Part shown: piece by piece, positions 30,440 to 57,483 of the stretch
Numbering within the stretch: the stretch's first letter is position 1
How the letters are laid out: the number at the start of each line of letters is the position of its first letter
DNA from: an uncultured Solirubrobacteraceae bacterium
GTDB taxonomy: Bacteria > Actinomycetota > Thermoleophilia > Solirubrobacterales > Solirubrobacteraceae
Assembly (NCBI GenBank): GCA_963756465.1
Contig: CAVWNK010000004.1
Span: 152,203-216,202 of the forward strand
Direction of reading: 5' to 3'
DNA: 64,000 nt
The notes under the pieces: model-generated
Database searches by the model: none
What the model saw: only the letters and a program-made list of their open reading frames with translations
Told to the model about the DNA's origin: nothing
Made by a program: the position numbers and the translations under genes

Positions 30440-31279
30440 ATGTCGCGCCGCCCGCTCTTCCTGCTGACGCTCGCCCTGGCGAGCGCGCTCGGCGCGCTCG
30501 CCGTCTGGGGTGCGGCATTTCACGTCGTCGGCCTGCGCAGCCTCGACGCCGGCGCGATGCAGGCGTTCACGGGCGTCGCCCGCGTCCCGCTCGAGCCGTC
30601 GATCCGAGGTGTCGCGCGGCTGGCCGATCCGAGCTGGTTTCTGACGGGCTGCGCGCTGCTCACCGCCGTCGCGCTGCTGCGACGGCGCTGGCTGATGGCG
30701 GTCGCCGTCCCGGCGATCCTGCTGAGCGCCAACGCCACGACGCAGCTGCTCAAGCCCGCGCTGGCCGATCCGCGCACGCTCGACCTGCGCGGCGTGGAGA
30801 TGATCTACCACGGCTCGTGGCCGAGCGGTCACTCGACGGCGTCGATGTCGCTGGCGCTGGGCCTCGTGCTCGTCGTCGGCCCGCGGCTGCGACCGCTGGC
30901 AGCGTCGATCGGCGCGGGCTACGCGATCGCGGTCGGCTACGCGCTCGTCGCGCTCGGCTACCACCTGCCCAGCGACGTCTTCGGCGGCTACCTCGTCGCG
31001 GCGACGTTCACGCTCGCCGGCGCCGCCGCGCTGACGGCGCTCGAGGCGCGCGCGCCCGCGCGCGTCGCCCGCGAGCGGACCCGGCGGGCACTCCCCGTTT
31101 CGCAGCTCGCGGCGAGCGGCGGGCTGCTGCTGGCTTGCAGCGCGGCGGCGGTCGTGCTGGGCGCACCCGGGATGACGCTCAACGCACTGCAGCATCCGAG
31201 CGCGATCGCCGCCGGGGCCGCGATCGCCGCGCTCGGCCTGACGCTCACCGCCGGGTTCGCCGTCGTCCTGCGGCGCTGA
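30440..31279 (+). CDS. PAP2-family membrane phosphatase, tandem paralog 1
   Basis: KP.....R, SWPSGHSTASMSLAL, GYHLPSDVFGGYLVA. Confidence 0.8.
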   Translation: MSRRPLFLLTLALASALGALAVWGAAFHVVGLRSLDAGAMQAFTGVARVPLEPSIRGVARLADPSWFLTGCALLTAVALLRRRWLMAVAVPAILLSANATTQLLKPALADPRTLDLRGVEMIYHGSWPSGHSTASMSLALGLVLVVGPRLRPLAASIGAGYAIAVGYALVALGYHLPSDVFGGYLVAATFTLAGAAALTALEARAPARVARERTRRALPVSQLAASGGLLLACSAAAVVLGAPGMTLNALQHPSAIAAGAAIAALGLTLTAGFAVVLRR

Positions 31280-32115
31280 TGGCGCGCGCCCCCGCCGTGC
31301 CGGCGGCGCTCGCCGCCGGCTGCGCGCTCGCCGTCGTGGCGCTGTGGTTCGCCGCCAACGACCTCGCCGCCGGGCGCGAGCTCGACGCGGCCCTCGCCGA
31401 TGCGATCTACAGCGCCTTCGCCGGCTTCAACCAGGAGCTGCTCAAGGGCGCGTCGAGCCTCGGCGACACGCTGCCGATCGCCGTCGGGTCGCTGGCGCTC
31501 GCGGCGCTCGCCTGGCTGCGCGGCGGGCGCCGGCTCGCGCTACTCGTCGCGTTCGTCCTGCTGGCGGGCAACGTCGCCACGCAACTCTCCCAACCGGCGC
31601 TGATCGCCGCCCGTCATGTCGATCTGACGGGGACCGCGATCGAAGGCTCGGGCTCTTGGCCGAGCGGTCATGCGATGGCGGCGATGCTGCTCGCGCTGCT
31701 GGCGATCGTCGTCGCCGGGCCGCGGCTGCGCGTGGTGACCGCGCTTGTCGGGCTCGCCTACGCGCTCGGGCTCGGCGTCGCGATCGTGGCGCTCGGCGGG
31801 CACCTTCCCAGCGACGTCGCCGCGGCGTACCTCGTCGCGGCAGCGTTCACGTTCGCGGGCGCGGCGGTCCACGCGGCGCTGCCCGACGACCGCGCGGCGG
31901 ACGGCGCCCGCAGCCGCTCGCCGCGCGTGGCGCCGGCGCTCGGCGCGCTGGCCGCCGCCGCAGTTCTCGCGAGCGGGATCGGCAAGGCCGTCGTGACGCG
32001 CCGCGACGAGGTCGCGCGGGCGCTCGATCAGGCCCCGCTCGTGCTCGCCGGCGCGGCTGCGCTGACCGTCGCCGTCCTGATCGGCGCCGGCGCCGTGCTC
32101 GTCGCGCGCCGCTGA
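31279..32115 (+). CDS. PAP2-family membrane phosphatase, tandem paralog 2
   Basis: SWPSGHAMAAMLLAL and GGHLPSDVAAAYLVA. ATG 31279 overlaps the stop of paralog 1 (TGATG). Confidence 0.8.
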   Translation: MARAPAVPAALAAGCALAVVALWFAANDLAAGRELDAALADAIYSAFAGFNQELLKGASSLGDTLPIAVGSLALAALAWLRGGRRLALLVAFVLLAGNVATQLSQPALIAARHVDLTGTAIEGSGSWPSGHAMAAMLLALLAIVVAGPRLRVVTALVGLAYALGLGVAIVALGGHLPSDVAAAYLVAAAFTFAGAAVHAALPDDRAADGARSRSPRVAPALGALAAAAVLASGIGKAVVTRRDEVARALDQAPLVLAGAAALTVAVLIGAGAVLVARR

Positions 32116-32164: not shown

Positions 32165-33114
32165 ATGCCGGTCTCCGCCGAGCCGCCCAGCGCGATCGAG
32201 GTTCGCAGCGTCTCGCGCAGGTTCGGCGAGCACGAGGTGCTGCGCGACGTGTCGCTGCGGGTCGCTCCGGGTGAGATCCACGCGCTGCTGGGGCCCAACG
32301 GCGCGGGCAAGACGACGCTGCTGCGAATCCTCTCGGGGCTCGTCGACCCGTCGGCGGGCGCGGTCGAGCTGACGGCACGCCCGGGTCTCGTGCCGTCGGG
32401 CGATCGCACGTTCTATCTGCGCATCTCCGGCCTGGAGAACCTCGTCTTCTTCGCCCGCATGCACGGGCTGCAGCGCGCGCCGAGGCCAAGCGCAGGGCGG
32501 CGCAGGTGCTCGACCTCGTCGGTCTGACGGAGGCGACGCGCCGGCCCGTCGGGCGCTACTCGCACGGTATGCAGAAGCGGCTGTCGTTCGCGCGCGCGCT
32601 GCTCGCCGACCCCGCGCTGCTGCTCGTCGACGAGGCCACCCACGACCTCGACCCGGAGGGCGCCGAGCGCATCCGCCGGCTGACGTCGCAGCTCGCCGCG
32701 CGCGGCGCGGCGATCCTCTGGACGACGCAGCGCATCGAGGAGATCCGCGGCTTCGCGGACGCGATCACGTTCCTGCACGACGGCAAGGTCCGCTTCGCGG
32801 GGTCGGTGCCGCAGATGATCGCGCGCGGCGACGCGTCGCCGCGCTACGTCCTGCGCGTGCGCAACGGCCGCCCGGACGTGGCGCCGGCGCCGGCGGCGCT
32901 GCAGCAGGCGGTCGGCGCCGGCGCCGTGATCGCGGCCGGCGACGGCAGCGGCGAGCACTTCCTGCTGGCGCCGCGCGACGGGACGACGCTCGGGGCCGCG
33001 ATCGCGGCGCTCGCCGGCGCGGGCTACGACGTGCTCTCCTGCCGCCAGGAGCGCTCGGAGGTCGAGGAGGCCTTCCTTGCGCTGACGGCCGACGACGGGG
33101 CGGCGGACGGATGA
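32165..33114 (+). pseudogene. ABC transporter ATP-binding protein split by a frameshift in a (GC)4 run at ~32473-32481
   Basis: ORF 32165..32527 carries Walker A ([14 protein letters not shown]). ORF 32506..33114 carries the signature and Walker B (YSHGMQKRLSFARA, LLLVDEATHDLD). The second frame reads back to ...[16 protein letters not shown], so the two halves form one gene. Confidence 0.8.
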
Positions 33115-33938
33115 CCGCCGCCGCGCTGACCGAGGCCGGCAAGGTCGGCGCGTTCGTCCGCCGCGACCTGCTGATCGCCTGGAGCTACCGGCTCGCGTTC
33201 GTCACCGACGTCGTGAGCATGGCCGCGCAAGCGTTCGTCTTCTCGATCGTCGGGCAGCTCGTCGACCCGGCGCGGCTGCCCTCCTACGACGGCTCGCCGA
33301 CGACCTACATGGAGTTCGTCGCGATCGGCCTCGTCCTGAACCTCGTCATCACGCTGCTGCTCGATCGCGTCGCCAACGCGATCCGCCAGGAGCAGGTGAT
33401 CGGCACGCTCGAGTCGCTGCTGACGACGCCGACCCGGACGGCGACGATCCAGATCGGCTCGGCGGCGTTCGAGTTTTTGTGGGTGCCGGTGCGCGCGACC
33501 GTGTTCCTGCTGGCGATCGCGCTGGGATTCGGGCTGGACCTGCACGTCAGCGGGATCCTGCCGGCGGCGGTCATCCTGCTGGCGTTCGTGCCGTTCGTGT
33601 GGGGGCTCGGCCTCGTGAGCGCGGCGACGATGCTGACGTTCCGCCGCGGCGGCGGCGGCGCGGCCGCGATCGCGGCGCTGCTGGGCCTCGCGTCGGGCGC
33701 CTTCTTCCCCGTCGATCTGCTGCCCGGCTGGCTGAGCTGGACGACCGCCGTCAACCCGATCGCGATCGCGCTGGAGGGGATCCGCGAGAGCCTGCTCGGC
33801 GGCGCCGACTGGACGCAGGCCGGGCCCGCCGTCCTGACGCTGACACCGCTGGCCGGCGCCGCGCTGGCGGCGGGCGTGCTCGCGTTCAGGCTCGCGCTCA
33901 GGCGTGAGCGGCGACTCGGAACGCTGGGCCTGTACTGA
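33111..33938 (+). CDS. ABC-2 type transporter permease
   Basis: 275 aa with six hydrophobic helices. N-terminus FVRRDLLIAWSYRLAF is typical of ABC-2 permeases. ATGA overlap with the ATPase. Confidence 0.8.
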   Translation: MTAAALTEAGKVGAFVRRDLLIAWSYRLAFVTDVVSMAAQAFVFSIVGQLVDPARLPSYDGSPTTYMEFVAIGLVLNLVITLLLDRVANAIRQEQVIGTLESLLTTPTRTATIQIGSAAFEFLWVPVRATVFLLAIALGFGLDLHVSGILPAAVILLAFVPFVWGLGLVSAATMLTFRRGGGGAAAIAALLGLASGAFFPVDLLPGWLSWTTAVNPIAIALEGIRESLLGGADWTQAGPAVLTLTPLAGAALAAGVLAFRLALRRERRLGTLGLY

Positions 33939-35008
33939 TGCGCTGGGAACGCGTCGAGGCGCTCGTCGAGCGCGCGCCGCAGCTCTCGGACCTGCAGCTG
34001 CACGGGCTCGATCTCGTCGCCGCGCAGCGACTGCGCGCGCGCGGCGCCGAGCTGCCGCCGGCGCTGCTCGCCCACGTCCGCGTCGCGGCCGCGATCGCGC
34101 TGGCGGCACCCGTGCTGCTGCGCCGCGCCCGCACCGCCTACGACGGTCGCCTGCTGCTGTTCAAGGGACCGGAGGTCGCCGCGCGCTACCCCGACCCGGC
34201 GATGCGCAACTACTCCGACCTCGACCTGCTCGCCGACGACGCGCCGGCGGCACAGCGGGCGCTGCTGGCGGCGGGGTTCGTGCGCACGGGGCTGTGGGCG
34301 CCCCATATCGACGTCCACCACCTGCAGCCGCTGGCCTGGCCGGGGCTGCCGATCGCGGTCGAACTGCACGCCTATCCGCACGTGCCGGCCGGCCTGCGAC
34401 CGCCGCCGACGCGGGAGCTGCTCGCGACGGCGGTGCCGTCGTGCTTCGCCGCGGACGTCGTCGAAACGCTCGCCCCGGCGGAGCACACGCTCGTCGTCGC
34501 CGCACACGCCTGGGCACACGACGCGCTCGCGAACATCGGGCAGCTGCTCGATGTCGCGCTGCTCGCCTCGCAGACCGACCGGCCGACGCTGCGCGCGCTC
34601 GCCGCGCGCTGGGGCTGGCAGCGGCTGTGGCGCGCCACGGAGGCGACGCTGGAGGCGCTGTTCGACGACGGCCGGCCGCCCGCGGCACAGCGCCTCTGCG
34701 CCCCCCATCTGCGCGCGGCACGCGAGCGCACGCTGCTGGAGCGTCACGTCGCCGAGCTCGCCGGCCCGGCGTTCGGCCTCCCGCCACGGCGCGCCGCGCT
34801 GGAGTCCGCGCGCGTGCTGCGACGCCGCATCCTGCCGGGCCCGGAGGAGACCTGGCGGCGCAAGGCGCGCCGCGCCCGGCGTGCGCTGCGCCATCGCGGC
34901 CTGCGCCACAGCGAGCACGACGCCCGCCTGCCGAGCGAGGATCTGCAGATCGGCGCGATCCCCGGCCTCGAGCGCGCGCCCGTCCCCGAGCCGCGAGGCC
35001 GCCCATGA
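33938..35008 (+). CDS. Uncharacterized nucleotidyltransferase family (PF14907-like), putative RiPP tailoring enzyme
   Basis: LLLFKGPEVAARYPDPAMRNYSDLDLLADDAPAAQRALLAAGF and VELHAYP. TGATG overlap with the permease. Confidence 0.7.
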   Translation: MRWERVEALVERAPQLSDLQLHGLDLVAAQRLRARGAELPPALLAHVRVAAAIALAAPVLLRRARTAYDGRLLLFKGPEVAARYPDPAMRNYSDLDLLADDAPAAQRALLAAGFVRTGLWAPHIDVHHLQPLAWPGLPIAVELHAYPHVPAGLRPPPTRELLATAVPSCFAADVVETLAPAEHTLVVAAHAWAHDALANIGQLLDVALLASQTDRPTLRALAARWGWQRLWRATEATLEALFDDGRPPAAQRLCAPHLRAARERTLLERHVAELAGPAFGLPPRRAALESARVLRRRILPGPEETWRRKARRARRALRHRGLRHSEHDARLPSEDLQIGAIPGLERAPVPEPRGRP

Positions 35009-35277
35009 CCGAGCCGGTGTGGCGGCTGCGCGCGGACGGGCTGGACTGGCGCGTCGTCGACGGCGAGGCCGTGATCCTCGACGCCGAGCGCTCCGCCTAC
35101 AACGCGACCAACGCCAGCGGGACCGTGCTGTGGACGCGCCTGCAGCACGGCGCGACGCGCTCCGAGCTCGTCGCCGCCCTCAGCGCGCGCTTCGCGATCG
35201 AGCGCGCACGCGCGGAGGCCGACGTCGACGCGTTCCTGGCCGATCTGCGCAGCCGCGGGCTGCTCGTCCGGTCGTGA
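35005..35277 (+). CDS. PqqD-family RiPP recognition element (lasso B1)
   Basis: 90 aa: VDGEAVILDAERSAYNATNASGTVLWTRLQHGATRSELVAALSARFAI...VDAFLADLRSRGLL. ATGA overlap. Confidence 0.85.
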   Translation: MTEPVWRLRADGLDWRVVDGEAVILDAERSAYNATNASGTVLWTRLQHGATRSELVAALSARFAIERARAEADVDAFLADLRSRGLLVRS

Positions 35278-35630
35278 GACGGCCGCCTTCGATCGCGACC
35301 CTGCGCGCCGCCTGGTGGGCGCACCGCGCGCTGCGCGACGCGCGCCGCCAGCTCCCCCGGCGCCCGCTCGACGAGGTGACGCTGGCGTCCCCGCCGCCGC
35401 TGCCGGCGGATGCCGTCCGCGGCGTCCGCGCCCTGCTCGCGCGGCGCCCGCACAGCTGCCTGGAAGGGGCGCTCGTGCTGCAGCGCTGGCTCGCCGCCTA
35501 CGGCGAGCCGCGCGACGTCGTGATCGGCGTCGTCGCGCCCGGCGAGGCATTCGGCGCGCACGCCTGGATCGACGGCGATCCGGCCGCAGCCGCCGAGCCG
35601 TTCGTCGAGCTGTGCCGCGTGCACCCGTGA
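35274..35630 (+). CDS. Transglutaminase-like cysteine protease (lasso leader peptidase B2)
   Basis: 118 aa with a Cys/His/Asp arrangement: SCLEGALVLQRWLAAYG...VIGV...FGAHAWIDGD. GTGA overlap. Confidence 0.8.
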   Translation: MRRPPSIATLRAAWWAHRALRDARRQLPRRPLDEVTLASPPPLPADAVRGVRALLARRPHSCLEGALVLQRWLAAYGEPRDVVIGVVAPGEAFGAHAWIDGDPAAAAEPFVELCRVHP

Positions 35631-36766
35631 CCGGCGCCGGCGCAGCGGAGCTCTCGGCGCTGGACATCGCGTGCGGGCTGGTCTTCGACGGGCGCCCGCC
35701 GCGGCGCGCGCGACCGCTCCCGAGCGCGCGCATGACGCCGGGGCGGGCGCTGTGCGAGGCGGTCCTGCCCGCGCTCCTGCGCGCGCCCTGCCTCGTCAGC
35801 TTCTCGGGCGGGCGCGACTCGTCGCTCGTGCTCGCGGCCGCGACACGGGTCGCCCGGCGCGAGGGCCTGGCGGACCCCGTGCCCGTCACCAACCGCTTCG
35901 CCGATGCGCCGGCGGCCGAGGAATCGCGCTGGCAGGAGCAGGTCGTCGAGCAGCTCGGGCTCAGCGATTGGCAGCGGCTGACGTTCGCCGACGAGCTCGA
36001 CGCCGTCGGACCCTATGCGCAGCGCGCGCTGCGGGCGCATGGCCTGCTGTGGCCCTTCAACGTGCATTTCCATCTGCCGTTGCTGGATCTCGCCCGCGGC
36101 GGCTCGCTGCTCACCGGTCTCGGCGGCGACCAGCTCTTCGGCGTCATCGCGCCGGCGCCGCGCCGTACGCCCGCCCGCCGGGCGGCCCACGGCGCGCTCG
36201 GGTGGGCGCCGCGAGCGCTGCGGGCGGCCGTGATCGCGTCGCGCCGCCCGCTCGACCCGCCCTGGATGCTCGCCGCCGGCAGCCGCGCCGCGACGCGGGC
36301 GATGGCCGCCGAGCTCGGCGCCGAGCCGCGCGGCCCGCTGGCCGCGCGGATGGCCCACGAGCTCTCGATGCGCTACATGCGGGTGACGCAGCAGTCGCTG
36401 GCGCTGTGCGCGGGCGCGGGCGACGTGCTGCTCTCCAACCCGCTCTGCGCGCCCTCGCTCTGGGGTGCCGTCGCGCACGCCTGCGCGGCGCCCGACGCGC
36501 GCCGCGACCACCAGCGCGCGCTGCGCGACCTCTTTCCCGGCTGGCTGCCGCAGGCGCTCGTCGCGCGCCGCGAGAAGGCGTCGTTCGATGAGGTGTTCGT
36601 CGCCGCGCACGCCCGCGCCTTCGCGCGCGACTGGGACGGCGGCGGCGTTCCACGCGACCTCGTCGACGTCGGCGCGCTGCGCGAGCACTGGCGCTCGGAC
36701 GAACCGTCGTGCCTGTCGTTGACGCTGATGCAGGCCGCGTGGCTGGCTCGAGGCCGACACACCTAG
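35627..36766 (+). CDS. Asparagine synthetase-like PP-loop ATP pyrophosphatase (lasso cyclase C homolog) lacking the N-terminal GATase-like domain. Alternative start ATG ~35731.
   Basis: SFSGGRDSS PP-loop sits only ~60 aa from the start. LTGLGGDQLFG. GTGA overlap with B2. Confidence 0.75.
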   Translation: MTGAGAAELSALDIACGLVFDGRPPRRARPLPSARMTPGRALCEAVLPALLRAPCLVSFSGGRDSSLVLAAATRVARREGLADPVPVTNRFADAPAAEESRWQEQVVEQLGLSDWQRLTFADELDAVGPYAQRALRAHGLLWPFNVHFHLPLLDLARGGSLLTGLGGDQLFGVIAPAPRRTPARRAAHGALGWAPRALRAAVIASRRPLDPPWMLAAGSRAATRAMAAELGAEPRGPLAARMAHELSMRYMRVTQQSLALCAGAGDVLLSNPLCAPSLWGAVAHACAAPDARRDHQRALRDLFPGWLPQALVARREKASFDEVFVAAHARAFARDWDGGGVPRDLVDVGALREHWRSDEPSCLSLTLMQAAWLARGRHT

Positions 36767-36830
36767 ACGATCGTCCAGCGGCCGCACGAGCCGACCGGCC
36801 TAGGCTTGACCGGAATGTAGTGTCACCCCC

Positions 36831-36842
36831 GGAAGGCCTTCC
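36831..36842 (+). promoter_or_regulatory. Shine-Dalgarno GGAAGG embedded in the perfect 12-bp palindrome GGAAGGCCTTCC, 7 nt upstream of the precursor ATG
   Basis: Read directly from the sequence. A TAnnnT box (TAGTGT, 36818-36823) lies just upstream, but no convincing -35 at correct spacing. Confidence 0.5.
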
Positions 36843-36843
36843 G

Positions 36844-37011
36844 ATGGATGCTCAGGCCCACGACAGTTCCTATGAAGCACCGAAGCTTCGCGACCTCGGC
36901 TCCGTGCACGAGCTCACGCAGGGCGGCCTGTTCGGCGACCGCTCCGACGGCCTCCTGATCCTCGTGAAGTACGGCGGTGGCGGCGGGGGCGGCGTCGTCA
37001 ACGGCTCCTAG
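36844..37011 (+). CDS. Lasso-peptide precursor (55 aa): leader MDAQAHDSSYEAPKLRDLGSVHELTQ, core GGLFGDRSDGLLILVKYGGGGGGGVVNGS
   Basis: ATG with an SD. The leader fits YxxPxLx3Gx5Tx with Thr at -2. Core starts with Gly1 and has Asp9. It lies 77 nt after the C gene. It is the 3' part of track ORF 36709..37011. Confidence 0.75.
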   Translation: MDAQAHDSSYEAPKLRDLGSVHELTQGGLFGDRSDGLLILVKYGGGGGGGVVNGS

Positions 37012-37864
37012 CCGATCGGCCCGGCAGCTGCTCGGCGAGCAGCTGCGTCGCGGCCGCCAGTGACGACCAGGCGCGTTCGCGGCGCAGCTGTAAGCACGGG
37101 AGCGCGCTGAGCGCGACGAGCGCCGCCGGATCGGCGGGCAGCAGCCGTACCGCGCGGTGCGGGACGACCTGTCGCAGCCGGTCGGCGCCGCGGATCGGCG
37201 TCAGCGACGGCGGGCCGTCACCCCACGCCAGCACGACCCAGCCGCGCAGCGGCAGCTCGGCCGCGACCGGGTCGAGCGCCAGGCGCCAGCGGTTGCGCAG
37301 GCCGATGCGCCCGAGCGGCTCGCCGGCGCCGAGTTCGCGCGCAGACTGCTCGCGCAGGTCGATCGAGCGCGGCCCCGCGAGCGCCGTGAAGCCGTCGAGG
37401 ACGAGCAGGTCGTCGCTGAGCACGCCGTGGCCGGCGAGCGCGAGGCTGGCCAGCGTCGTGCTCTTGCCCGCCTCCTTGTCGCCGAGCAGCGCCCACGCGC
37501 CGCCGCCGATCACGACGGTTCCGCAGTGAAAGCTCTCCCGCCCGAGCCAGCGCGCCGCGACCGCGGCGACGGGCGCGAGGTGCGGATGCACGAGCGCCGC
37601 CGGCGTGACCGCACGCGGCAGCGCGTACTCGGCGCGCAGCGGCGCGCGCTCGATCGCGACCGAGCCGCCCGCGGTCAGGCGCAGCTCGGCGTGCTGCTCG
37701 GAGACCGACTCGTACTCGGGCAGCGGGCCCGTCTCGATGCGGCAGCGCAGGTCGAGCACGGGCCAGGACGGCGGCGCGTCGACGAGCAGATCCTGCGCGC
37801 GGTCGACGCCGGCGCCGCGCAGCCGGAAACCGTAGGCGCCGCGGTCAGGCGGCCGACTCGACAC
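36998..37864 (-). CDS. HPr kinase C-terminal-domain-like P-loop protein (putative RiPP Ser kinase). Start is GTG 37864.
   Basis: GDKEAGKSTTLASLALAGHGVLSDD. The N-terminal 73 aa of the 361-aa track ORF are Arg-rich and overlap the helicase. The stop overlaps the precursor 3' end by 14 bp. Confidence 0.7.
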   Translation of the reverse strand: MSSRPPDRGAYGFRLRGAGVDRAQDLLVDAPPSWPVLDLRCRIETGPLPEYESVSEQHAELRLTAGGSVAIERAPLRAEYALPRAVTPAALVHPHLAPVAAVAARWLGRESFHCGTVVIGGGAWALLGDKEAGKSTTLASLALAGHGVLSDDLLVLDGFTALAGPRSIDLREQSARELGAGEPLGRIGLRNRWRLALDPVAAELPLRGWVVLAWGDGPPSLTPIRGADRLRQVVPHRAVRLLPADPAALVALSALPCLQLRRERAWSSLAAATQLLAEQLPGRSARSR

Positions 37865-40800
37865 CGTCGTCGAGCGGCGCGGAGCCGTCCGCGCCCTCCT
37901 CGCCGCTGGCCTGCGCCGGCTTGGGTGCCGTGCGGCGCGCGGGCGCGCGGCGGCGCTTGGGCTTGGCCTCGTCGAGCGACGGTGCCGCGTCGGCCTTGGG
38001 CTTCGCCGGCCGCGTGGCCTTGGCCTTGGCCTTCGTCGTCGTCGCCTTCGCGCCGGCAGCCTTGGGCTTGGCCGTCGGCTCATCCGTCGCCGCAGCCGGC
38101 TTGCGCACGGTCGCGCGGCGGCGCTTGGGCGCCGCCGGCGACGCCTGCTCCGCGGCGTCCTCGGCGCGAGCCGGGACGTCCGCGGTCTTGGGCGCGCGGG
38201 CGGCCAGCAGCGCAGCCGCAGCGTCCGCGATCGCCTCGACCGCGAGCGCCTCGTCGACCGGCTTCTCGGGCGGCCTGCGCGAGCGCGAGCGGCGCGACGC
38301 CGGCGCGGGCGTCGGCGTGTCGTCCTGGTCGCGGATGGCGTCGGCCGCGTCGTCGCCGGAGGCCGCTGCGGGCGCGGTTCGCTCGGGATCGGTGTCGCGG
38401 TGTGGGGCGCGGCCGTTGCGCGCGCGGCGCGAGCGCGTCCGGCTCGAGCTGCGCCCGGAGCCGCGCTCGTCGCCGTCGACCCCGGTCCCGTCCTGCGCGG
38501 TCGCGAGCGCGACCACCTCGGCCGTGCCCTCGGCGCCCTCCGCGACGCCGCCCTTCTTGCGCCGGCGGCGGTTGCCGCGCCGGCCGCGGCTCTTGGGGAA
38601 GTTGCGCAGCAGCTCGCGCGAGAGCGCGCTCGGCTTGCGCGCCAGGCGCGTCCGCGCGCCGCGCAGGATCTCCTCGCCCTCGGGCGTATGCGCGATCGCC
38701 GCGGCGAGCAGCGCGGCGCTGAGGCGCCGGTCCTGCTTGCGCGCGGCGTGCACGAGCCGGCGCGCGTTGCGCGCGTGCGCGGCGCCGCTGGAGTTCACGA
38801 GCAGCCCGAGCAGGCGCTTGGTCTCCGGCCAGCGCTGGACGGCGTACTCCTCGTGCACATCGCGCGTGTACGAGGCCAGGCGCCAGATCCAGTCGTTGGC
38901 CTGGTCGCGCCGGCCGATGCGCTTCTCGGCGAGCGCCAGCAGGCAGATCTTCGTGCCCTCGCGGCGCTCGTCGCGCGTCCAGCCCGAGATGACGTCGACG
39001 ACGGCGCGGTCGAAGGCCTCGGGATCGCGCGCCGTGGCGATCTCCTGCAGCGCGCGCAGGCGCAGCTGCGGGTTCTTGTTGCGCTCCACGGCGGTCAGCA
39101 GGAACGCGCGCTTGAACTCGCCGCCGCGGTCGAAGTGCAGCATCGCGCGGGCCCGGCGCCAGCCGCTCGGCGCGACGCGCGCGCCGGCCAGGGCGGCCCA
39201 CTGGATCTGCTCGCCGTAGGGCAGGTGCTCGACGGCGATCCGCCACAGCTCGCGCTCGAAGACCTCGATCCGCCGATCCTCGTCGCTCGTCACCGGCAGC
39301 ACGCGGCGCTCGACGCGCACGCGCCGGCCGCGGCCGCGGCGGACGGGGCCGACGACGATCGCGCCGCCGCGGTAGACGTCGCGGTCCAGCAGCGAGTGCA
39401 GCGTCACGACGGGATCGTCGTTCTTCGTGTTCGGCGCGACGAAGTCGACGACGACGCCCGCCTCCTTGCCCGGATGGCGGCGCGTGACGCGGCCGACGCG
39501 CTGCTGGTAGATGCGCTTGGAGGCCGTCGGCGCGAGGTGCATGCAGACCGTCGCGCGGGGTGAGTTCCAGCCCTCGGCGAGCAGCTGCGCGTTGACGAGC
39601 ACGTCGATGTCGCCGCGCTCGTAGCTGGCGAGGATCTCGGCCAGCTCGCGCTTGGGCGTCTCGCCCGAGACCCCCATCGCCTTCATGCCCTGGTCGCGGA
39701 AGGCCTGCGCGACGTTGTAGGCGTGGCGCACGCCGGCGGCGTAGACGACGCCCGGCACGCCGTTGAAGCGCGACTTGTAGAGGTCGGCGATGGCGAAGTT
39801 GAAGGGCGCCTGGTCGAGCAGCTCGGCGAGCATCTCCTGGTCGAACTCGACGTCGACCTCGCCGCGGCGCAGCGGCACGTTGGCGATGTTGCGCACGTCC
39901 TGGCCGGGCGGGATCCGCACGCAGCGCAGCGGCGAGATGACGCCGCGGCGGGCGGCCTGCGCGAGGTCGAAGCGCGACGTCTGCGTCGGGAAGAGGTCGG
40001 TGACGTGGCGTGCGATCAGCGCGCCCGTCGCGGTCATGCCGATGAAGATCGGGCCCGACCACTCGCGGATCGCGGCGCTCGTCTTCTCGCCCAGCGCGGT
40101 ATGCGCCTCGTCGCAGATGACGATCGAGTAGGCGGGCGAGATGCTGCCGGCGTTGCGCACGAACCACTGGTACGTCTCGACCGTGACGGGGCCGTTGGCG
40201 GCGTCCTGGCCCTTGAGCAGGGCGGGCGTGACGCGCTTGGCGTAGCCGCGCTGCTTCAGCTCGCCGTGGAACTGGTCGACGAGGTTGCGGCGGTGGGTGA
40301 GGATCAGGATCCCGCCCGTGCGCGACGCGTCGACGAAGCCCATCGCGGCGACGGTCTTGCCGGCGCCGGTCGCGTGCTCGAACCAGAAGCGCTTGTGGGC
40401 GTTGGGGTCGTCGGGCTGCTCGTCGAGCTGGTCCTCGTCGAAGACGGCCTCCGCCGCGTCCTCCTCGGACTCCTCCTCCTCCTCGTCCTCGTCGTCGTCG
40501 CCCATGTCGATGTCGACCTCGAAGTCCAGCGGCTCGATGACCTCCGGCTCGTCGTCGTCGTCGTCCGGCGCGTCGGCGGCGCCGCCGCGAAATCGCCGTC
40601 GTCCTCGTCGTCCTCGTCGACCGCCAGGACGGGAGCGGCGGAGGGAGCGCCACCGTTGCCCGCGCCGTTGCCGTTCTGGCGCTGCGCCTCGGCGAGCAGC
40701 GCGGTCAGGGTGCCCGACAGGGCGTCGACCTGATGCGGGTTCAGCGCGGTGCCGTCGGCGAGCCTGGGTTCGCCGTCGGACAGCACGCGCTCGAGGCCGA

Positions 40801-41032
40801 GCATGAGCGAGTAGCGCCGCCGCCACTCGGTCGACGGCACCTTCGCGCCGGCCTCGATCTCCAGCAGCGCGGCATCGAGCGCGCGCCGGCGCGCGGTGCC
40901 GGGTGCGAGCGCGGCCTCCGTCGTCTCGCCCGCGTGCACGAACGACTCGCGGGTGAACTTCTCCGCGCGCGATGTTTCGGAAGGATTGGGAACGGACGCG
41001 GCCACGACGGCCACTGGCGTGGGATCAGCCAA
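37845..41032 (-). pseudogene. SF2 DEAD/DEAH-box helicase with an acidic low-complexity insert and a Lys/Ala/Pro-rich basic tail. Frame broken at ~40570-40590.
   Basis: Motifs LNPHQVDAL (upstream frame), then ATGAGKT, CDEAH, MTAT, QRVGRVTR (downstream frame). Tail ...AKPKAAGAKATTTKAKAKATRPAKPKA.... Putative TTG start at 41032 after AGGAAG. Confidence 0.7.
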
Positions 41033-57410: not shown

Positions 57411-57483
57411 GCCCCAGTAGCTCAGTGGACAGAGCGACCGCCTCCTAAGCGGTAGGCCGCAGGTTCGACTCCTGCCTGGGGCA
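57411..57483 (+). tRNA. tRNA-Arg (anticodon CCT)
   Basis: Cloverleaf folded by hand. Acceptor GCCCCAG/CTGGGGC, D arm GCTC/GAGC, anticodon arm ACCGC-CTCCTAA-GCGGT, T arm GCAGG-TTCGACT-CCTGC, discriminator A. 73 nt, CCA not encoded. Confidence 0.93.

Follow-up and report, generated by a model that had tools for sequence, protein, structure and literature searches.

We analysed a 64,000-nucleotide stretch of DNA from an uncultured Solirubrobacteraceae bacterium (contig CAVWNK010000004.1, positions 152,203 to 216,202; the whole stretch is called the window below). At positions 32165-37864 we detected eight genes that we regard, with good confidence, as a genuine biosynthetic gene cluster for a ribosomal peptide of the lasso type, of the phosphorylated (paeninodin/pseudomycoidin/bsf-like) kind. 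The lasso-type product is probably phosphorylated at its end. Six open reading frames (ORFs) run in the same direction from 32165 to 36766 on the plus strand: an ATP-binding cassette (ABC) transporter ATPase, D1 (32165-33114); an ABC-2 type permease of 275 residues, D2 (33111-33938); a PF14907 nucleotidyltransferase of 356 residues, N (33938-35008); B1, a PqqD-like leader-recognition element of 90 residues (35005-35277); B2, a transglutaminase-like leader peptidase of 118 residues (35274-35630); and C, a single-domain asparagine synthetase-like PP-loop enzyme of 379 residues, the putative macrolactam synthetase (35627-36766). They are followed by the gene for the 55-residue precursor peptide A (36844-37011, plus strand) and by K (36998-37864, minus strand), encoding a 288-residue P-loop kinase with a predicted HprK/phosphoenolpyruvate carboxykinase (PEPCK) fold. 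An earlier note on this DNA had proposed the same gene set (A, B1, B2, C and paired D genes, with K and N), and it is supported by profile hidden Markov models (HMMs), fold searches, motifs, conserved synteny and a conserved precursor family.

The five start/stop overlaps that the earlier note had claimed between the six ORFs were all found: ggATGAcc at 33111, ctgATGcg at 33938 (TGA and ATG overlap), ccATGAcc at 35005, tcGTGAga at 35274 and ccGTGAcc at 35627. The 77-nucleotide gap also described there separates the C stop at 36766 from the small ORF start at 36844. A Shine-Dalgarno-like GGAAGG lies 7 nucleotides upstream of the precursor ATG (36844), and a perfect 12-nucleotide palindrome, GGAAGGCCTTCC, at 36826-36837 spans it just before the start codon. 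The convergent kinase-like gene expected after the 55-residue ORF is present, and its 3' end (36998) overlaps the 3' end of the precursor ORF (stop 37011) by 14 nucleotides.

The GC content of the region is about 75%, and the GC content at third codon positions (GC3) is 0.86-0.98 for every proposed frame. For C and K, the sequence upstream in the same frame has a low GC3 (0.56 and 0.72, respectively), which confirms the starts of C (35627) and K (37864). The genome had been described as GC-rich and actinobacterial-looking. Its closest relatives are Solirubrobacteraceae-type metagenome-assembled genomes. The promoter and terminator scan found nothing, and the tRNA and Rfam scans detected only one tRNA-Arg at 57411, unrelated to the cluster.

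Pfam matches of the cluster genes were counted against gathering scores, which all matches listed here exceed. They include four of the five families named beforehand for an hmmscan check, PF05402, PF13471, PF14907 and PF00733. B1 matches PF05402 (E 3.4e-17, 63 bits, cut-off 23.4). In NCBIfam it comes closest to NF033530 and NF033536, models of lasso PqqD chaperones, without reaching the cut-off of either, and to TIGR04353 (E 9e-7, 29.8 bits, curated cut-off 35). B2 matches PF13471 (E 9.4e-11, 42.1 bits, cut-off 26), passes the NCBIfam model NF033537 lasso_biosyn_B2 (34.7 bits, cut-off 33) and carries the motif residues Cys62 within SCLEGA and His96 within AHAWIDGD. N matches PF14907, NTP_transf_5 (E 3.9e-22, 79.5 bits, cut-off 31.2), with the motifs FKGPE (residues 75-79) and acidic SDLDLL (residues 93-98). 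On the basis of the PF14907 match, N is classed as a putative nucleotidyltransferase of the PsmN/BsfN-like type.

The cassette recurs in 47 related loci, which were used for comparison: 44 from a genome scan and three closer ones, L045 (GCA_038255395.1), L046 and L047, from exact-protein look-ups (48 counting the window). The 44 come from Solirubrobacterales, Gaiellales, Thermoleophilaceae, Acidimicrobiales, Egibacteraceae, Frankiales and Jatrophihabitans. The leader of precursor A is MDAQAHDSSYEAPKLRDLGSVHELTQ and its core is GGLFGDRSDGLLILVKYGGGGGGGVVNGS. The 55-residue ORF, which the earlier note had credited with a typical lasso leader, passes the NCBIfam model NF033521 lasso_leader_L3 (29.9 bits, cut-off 19). 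With cleavage after Gln26, the leader has Tyr(-17), Pro(-14), Leu(-12) and Thr(-2) (Y10, P13, L15 and T25 of 26); recognition by B1 and processing are reported to depend on these positions (PMC10368454, with reference to Chekan 2019 and Sumida 2019). The leader pattern is matched exactly once in the whole window, by precursor A. Conservation of a small ORF near related clusters had been suggested as a check, and a search of their surroundings with this pattern, built from the window leader, gave 41 small ORFs.

The core has a small N-terminal residue, Gly1, and Asp9 as the acceptor candidate, fitting the rule of Asp/Glu at positions 7-9. The core of the three closest relatives (L045-L047) is GS(L/I)(R/F)GN(A/T)SDGLLILVKYGGGGGVVNGS, sharing with the window core Gly1, Gly5, Ser8, Asp9, a hydrophobic-Lys-Tyr segment and the terminal Ser. 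Asp6 of the window core is Asn in L045-L047, and because it is not conserved, Asp9 is likely the ring acceptor, giving a 9-residue ring. The window core ends in VVNGS, and Ser8 is the only Ser besides the C-terminal Ser29. Across the family 19 of the 41 cores end in Ser, and 34 have Ser among the last three residues.

The glycine run of the core (36973-36993, precursor codons 44-50) has seven residues in the window and five in the three closest relatives. The run is encoded by GGC/GGT/GGG repeats, so that slippage may change its length. Two different precursor genes stand side by side in L006, L008, L012, L030 and L036, one with a 'G.SDG.TF.G' core and the other with a two-Cys 'GPPD[YF]' core.

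K had been described as an HPr-kinase-like P-loop gene, and PF07475 had been suggested as the family to look for. No Pfam family matches K even at E <= 10, and its only NCBIfam match is a weak one to TIGR04352 (19.4 bits, curated cut-off 200), so that the identity of K rests on its fold and catalytic motif. The AlphaFold model of K (built from 22 homologues) has a predicted local distance difference test (pLDDT) score of 92.9, and a Foldseek search with it detected PEP carboxykinases (E ~5e-7) and HprK/P (1kkl, 1jb1, 2qmh; E ~5e-5). The catalytic residues are His113, Gly128-DKEA-Gly133-Lys134-Ser135 and Asp151-Asp152. In the 22 homologues His113, Gly128, Gly133, Lys134, Ser135, Asp151 and Asp152 are invariant. 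Counted from the His, the motif spacing is 15, 20, 21, 22, 38 and 39 residues, identical to that of BsfK H148/G163/G168/K169/S170/D186/D187, a motif whose importance was shown by mutagenesis and which is common to other characterised lasso kinases (PMC10368454). The position matching BsfK G166 is Glu in K. The modelled HprK/PEPCK fold and the lasso-kinase catalytic motif together uphold the description as an HPr-kinase-like P-loop gene, and the PF07475 assignment was not borne out.

The HPr-rel-A system, which combines HprK-related kinase A (TIGR04352) with a PqqD-family chaperone (TIGR04353), resembles the cluster in that K matches the first model and B1 the second. Both scores are far below the curated cut-offs, and the window K and B1 are therefore not members of these equivalogs. 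The kinases PadeK, ThcoK, SyanK and PsmK phosphorylate the C-terminal Ser on the linear precursor (PMC9266682, PMC8498205), and this Ser is the phosphorylation site for paeninodin, ThcoA, SyanA and pseudomycoidin. BsfK targets Ser3 and not the C-terminus (PMC10368454).

C matches PF00733 (E 2.3e-10, 41.1 bits, cut-off 21) over profile positions 18-333 of 354, and has the PP-loop SFSGGRDSS (58-66), GLGGDQLFG (164-172) and REKASFD (315-321). Its AlphaFold model (pLDDT 91.6) has its best PDB fold matches in synthetase domains, namely those of TsnB9, of beta-lactam synthetase, of AsnB/ASNS (the asparagine synthetases of E. coli and human) and of the carbapenam synthetase CarA. For comparison with a known lasso cyclase we used McjC (513 residues, taken from an E. 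coli plasmid) with a small family profile of 8 relatives from a homologue search. By hhalign only window residues 37-174 were alignable, to McjC 175-307 (probability 34%, with the small McjC profile). In this alignment SFSGGRDSS is superimposed on McjC 199-204 and GLGGD on McjC 298-302; McjC Ser199, Asp203 and Asp302 are reported to be essential residues. Since the alignment begins at McjC 175, about 140-175 residues of N-terminal domain have no counterpart in C. The two-domain architecture of McjC, an N-terminal glutaminase-like domain followed by the synthetase, is not found in C, and no separate ORF for such an N-terminal domain was found in the cassette. C matches no curated lasso-cyclase HMM of NCBIfam; McjC itself matches none either, so these models cannot discriminate for C.

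A function of C other than ring formation has to be considered, namely another adenylation-dependent modification such as carboxylate amidation, the peptide then being linear or an otherwise modified ribosomal peptide with lasso-like B1/B2 processing. The confinement of the McjC similarity to the ATP-binding motifs, the amidotransferases and beta-lactam synthetases among the structural neighbours and the Asp positions of relatives' cores that are unfit for lasso rings speak for such a role. However, the cassette holds no other candidate cyclase, B2::C fusions exist, and the canonical Gly1...Asp9 of the window core is kept in relatives. C also carries no glutaminase domain and thus has no built-in ammonia source for amidation. 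We consider this alternative highly improbable and treat C as the putative macrolactam synthetase.

The earlier note had called C a cyclase homolog missing its N-terminal domain, and atypical for it. The domain is truly absent (36 residues precede the region aligned from McjC 175), but its absence is the norm in the clade. In each of the 26 family members aligned, some 55 residues lie ahead of the PP-loop, and the short cyclases have in common an N-terminal motif, L-x-x-L-[DE]-[IV]-A-[CTSA]-G-[LIM]-V-[FL] (C residues 9-20, within 35627-35690). The A-C-G-L/I of this motif recalls M-C-G-I, with which class-II glutamine amidotransferase domains begin, and the motif might be a remnant of a lost N-terminal domain. 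A local truncation or split gene was considered and rejected: the 25 homologues aligned with C share its start position, the best 150 representatives are nearly all 360-420 residues long, the upstream extension is non-coding by GC3, and the cassette has no extra ORF.

C belongs to a large, uncharacterised actinobacterial group of single-domain cyclases. A word-indexed search with C gave more than 1,300 matches, of which the best 120 are all 340-464 residues long save one 226-residue fragment, the named ones being from Solirubrobacteraceae. By exhaustive profile search at least 952 clusters (50% identity) share the short C at E <= 1e-30, and among the best 150 of these 952 nearly all have 360-420 residues, and the match begins no later than about residue 30. 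Gene fusions tie the short cyclase to the pathway, linking C with B2 (P0301, with B2 at the N-terminus) and with N (P0336, with the PF14907 nucleotidyltransferase at the C-terminus). Two further fusion proteins, P0268 and P0315, carry a sulfotransferase at the C-terminus of C; a sulfotransferase gene had been noted for some K-type clusters (PMC8498205). No description of short or truncated lasso cyclases was found in the searchable literature, and an earlier mention elsewhere is possible.

Synteny was derived from iterative profile searches over the related loci. The full order ABC-ABC2-NTase-B1-B2-C (NTase, nucleotidyltransferase) followed by convergent K was detected in about 16 loci, and C is directly followed by convergent K in 32 of the 48, window included. 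The position of K on the opposite strand, which had been considered atypical, is thus the norm for the clade. The order D-D-N-B1-B2-C-A with the precursor last had been called atypical as well. This applies to A, whose place between C and K is shared only by the three nearest relatives of the window (most others have the precursor just beyond K), but D-D-N-B1-B2-C recurs in about 16 loci. In tblastn searches of C, K, N, B1 and B2 against 72,556 plasmids no matches were found. Some related clusters have two short-cyclase genes: L010 (2972-4087 and 7995-9125), L024 and L026.

The exporter is encoded by D1 and D2. D2 matches PF01061 (E 1.7e-18) and is kept beside the ATPase in about 16 related loci. 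D1 is split into ORFs 32165-32527 and 32506-33114, and both halves match PF00005, the N-terminal part with E 8e-14 and the C-terminal part with E 2e-7, over profile positions 1-45 and 89-136. The frameshift in the ABC ATPase, suspected before, is present: by DNA alignment there are two extra bases near 32470-32480 compared with L045 and L046, close relatives that have an intact ABC ATPase gene of 316 residues. The GC-rich site (32460-32490) reads ctgcagcgcgcgcc against ctgcgccgcgcc, a two-base insertion relative to the close relatives.

This +2-nucleotide frameshift, which divides an ATPase intact in L045 and L046, could mean that this genome carries the cluster as a non-functional copy in decay, from which no product is made or none is exported. 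We consider this unlikely, since the seven other genes are intact with a strong coding signal (GC3 0.86-0.98), the catalytic residues of the other cluster genes are conserved, and a two-base assembly error is possible in such a GC-rich stretch. PsmD, moreover, is dispensable for pseudomycoidin synthesis (PMC6993621).

The closest known systems are those for pseudomycoidin (psm, Bacillus pseudomycoides) and paeninodin (pade, Paenibacillus dendritiformis), which have the same split B1/B2, asparagine synthetase-like C, HprK-like kinase and ABC exporter, and a precursor ending in Ser. As in the window, psm also has a PF14907-type nucleotidyltransferase, and the pseudomycoidin ring has 9 residues (residue 1 to Asp9), as predicted here (PMC6993621, PMC9266682). 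The hosts of psm and pade are Firmicutes, whereas the window host is a GC-rich actinomycetote. The psm gene order C-A-K-B1-B2-N-D (implied by the descriptions in PMC6993621) differs from D-D-N-B1-B2-C-A with convergent K. Compared with psm and pade, the window has an exporter composed of an ATPase and ABC-2 permease pair, a single-domain C of 379 residues, a K without a Pfam Hpr_kinase_C match and an unrelated core sequence.

The bsf cluster of Bradymonas sediminis (BsfA/B1/B2/C/D/K/N) likewise has K and N alongside the core lasso genes, and its kinase motif H-x14-G-x4-G-K-S-x15-D-D is spaced as in the window K. B1 of this system stimulates phosphorylation and leader removal (PMC10368454). The bsf system differs in phylum and in that BsfK phosphorylates Ser3 and BsfA ends in Asp, whereas the window core ends in Ser. 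The Bsf leader has Ile at -2 in place of Thr(-2), and the mature bsf product was never detected.

Microcin J25 (McjA/B/C/D) shares the ATP-dependent asparagine synthetase-like cyclase, whose PP-loop (SGGxDS) and GGD align with the window C, and the C-terminal domain of McjB matches the same NCBIfam model as the window B2. However, McjC (513 residues) has about 175 residues ahead of the aligned region compared with 36 in the window C, and McjB is a fused B1-B2 protein, whereas B1 and B2 are separate in the window. Microcin J25 has no kinase and no nucleotidyltransferase, and its exporter is one fused ABC protein.

The earlier note had related K and N to a pair from Firmicutes clusters. Both genes are present, but the pair also occurs outside Firmicutes: K and N are found together in the Bradymonas bsf cluster, and Sphingomonadales have K-type clusters (PMC10368454, PMC8498205). 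Reports of K/N-tailored lasso clusters cover Firmicutes, Sphingomonadales and Bradymonadales (PMC8498205, PMC10368454). Such clusters are already established in their genes and in the logic of their tailoring; the window cluster differs in phylum, gene order, the ATPase and ABC-2 permease exporter and, above all, the single-domain cyclase. With it, the known range of phospho-tailored lasso clusters comes to include soil Thermoleophilia and relatives. The searchable literature yielded no characterised lasso peptide from Thermoleophilia or Solirubrobacter, and an earlier mention elsewhere is possible.

By analogy to paeninodin, pseudomycoidin and bsf, we propose a pathway in which B1 would bind the 55-residue precursor via leader Tyr(-17)/Pro(-14)/Leu(-12), and K would phosphorylate a Ser of the still-linear precursor, the likeliest site being the C-terminal Ser29 of the core. 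B2 would then cut after Gln(-1), with Thr at -2, and C would adenylate the Asp9 side chain and join it to the Gly1 amine, giving a 9-residue macrolactam with a 20-residue tail. N may add a further group to the phosphate (a hexose in pseudomycoidin), and the ABC ATPase and ABC-2 permease would export the product. The calculated monoisotopic neutral mass of the linear core is 2677.382 Da; the macrolactam would have 2659.372 Da, and 2739.338 Da with a phosphate, 2901.391 Da with phosphate and one hexose, and 3063.444 Da with phosphate and two hexoses. Precedent comes from experiments on known systems, in which K phosphorylates the C-terminal Ser while the precursor is still linear and N attaches a hexose to the phosphate (PMC9266682, PMC6993621, PMC8498205). 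The order of steps, the phosphorylation site, the group added by N and the threaded topology are all drawn from these analogies and are accordingly provisional.

The product could also be a macrolactam without threading, a branched-cyclic or lariat peptide made by a minimal cyclase that lacks a domain for pre-folding the tail, with any locking dependent on the bulky phospho-glycosyl group at the C-terminus. Only about 36 residues of C precede the segment aligning with McjC from 175, and the window tail closes with a long, flexible stretch of Gly and then VVNGS. When K and N are left out, pseudomycoidin is obtained as an unthreaded branched cycle, and its authors proposed the C-terminal decoration as the lock (PMC6993621). 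Yet the sources consulted do not establish what the N-terminal domain does in canonical cyclases, and the bulky tail residues Lys16 and Tyr17 could serve as plugs. We consider an unthreaded product quite unlikely and keep the lasso-type assignment.

The peptides of many relatives show a second pattern. In 24 of 41 cores from the related clusters a Lys lies exactly 6 residues before the conserved Asp (K-x5-D; for example L008 10056-10211, L036 10202-10396 and L011 10008-10184). Shuffled cores gave 2.9 +/- 1.6 (maximum 9 in 2,000 shuffles), a test in which the kinship of the peptides makes independence overstated. The spacing stays the same wherever the Asp sits, at distances of 9 to 23 residues from the predicted leader cut. 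In several further cores the Lys is 7 residues before the Asp, and in L018 and L038 that Lys is residue 1, with Asp8. Similarity clustering showed the cyclases of Lys-type and Gly1-type clusters interleaved, and the nearest non-identical neighbours of the window cyclase, L001 and L004, are Lys-type. The K-x5-D pattern of relatives suggests either trimming that exposes Lys1 and leads to rings of 7-8 residues, or a Lys side chain that acts as nucleophile in a macrolactam with Asp. The window peptide has Leu at the corresponding position and no such Lys, and nothing about it is anomalous.

The single-domain cyclase clade may represent a distinct route to interlocked or lariat peptides, in which the N-terminal domain would be dispensable, its role passing to partner proteins (candidates are K, nearly always adjacent, or B1/B2), and in which many members would form a different ring; the window peptide (Gly1-Asp9) would then be at the conventional end. 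We offer this as a tentative and rather doubtful proposal.

Several points weigh against the assignment of the region to a phosphorylated lasso-type cluster. No member of the clade has a characterised product. C is without the N-terminal domain present in McjC, the sole reference cyclase compared, and beyond the nucleotide-binding motifs it has almost no detectable sequence similarity to McjC. A search of PDB sequences with the C profile gave LarE as the best match, with an E-value of only 0.14. The chemistry of the clade may differ from the textbook, because in many relatives the conserved Asp is too far (10-20 residues) from the predicted cut site for an ordinary lasso ring. K has no match to Pfam Hpr_kinase_C, and as BsfK targets Ser3, the phosphorylation site is uncertain, with Ser8 as a possible alternative. 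Output of the product may be impaired here because the exporter ATPase is frameshifted, unless this is an assembly error.

How lasso cyclases fold the tail through the ring before closure is an unresolved question, and according to a 2026 review no lasso cyclase crystal structure exists (PMC13352647). The synthetase-only cyclase family (at least 952 clusters at 50% identity, always located in lasso-type gene clusters and sometimes fused to B2) would test the need of the N-terminal domain for threading. The short cyclase (379 residues, model pLDDT 91.6) is also a smaller enzyme for engineering and may crystallise more easily. The short-cyclase cluster was found in two cultured strains, Phytoactinopolyspora alkaliphila CGMCC 4.7225 (L028) and Kineococcus indalonis T90 (L033). 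The cluster of L028 (7250-10371) is complete; a single strand carries B1, precursor (…TPPETGLS), C, B2 and K in that order, and this locus is a practical entry point for experiments.

Directly upstream of the cluster are two tandem PAP2-family membrane phosphatase genes (30440-31279 and 31279-32115), and on its other side, on the minus strand, a large ResIII/Helicase_C-type helicase gene (37845-40826). Both the PAP2 genes (30440-32115) and the helicase were considered as cluster members and rejected. Only the three closest relatives have them beside the cassette, and for this reason the cluster bounds are set at 32165 and 37864. The PAP2 genes are probably neighbours, although phosphatase genes adjoining a phosphopeptide cluster are worth bearing in mind. 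The helicase has a long, low-complexity N-terminal region rich in Ala, Lys, Pro and Arg. The last 20 nucleotides of its gene overlap the start of the K gene, with the same overlap in L045, suggesting that K may be co-transcribed with the helicase.

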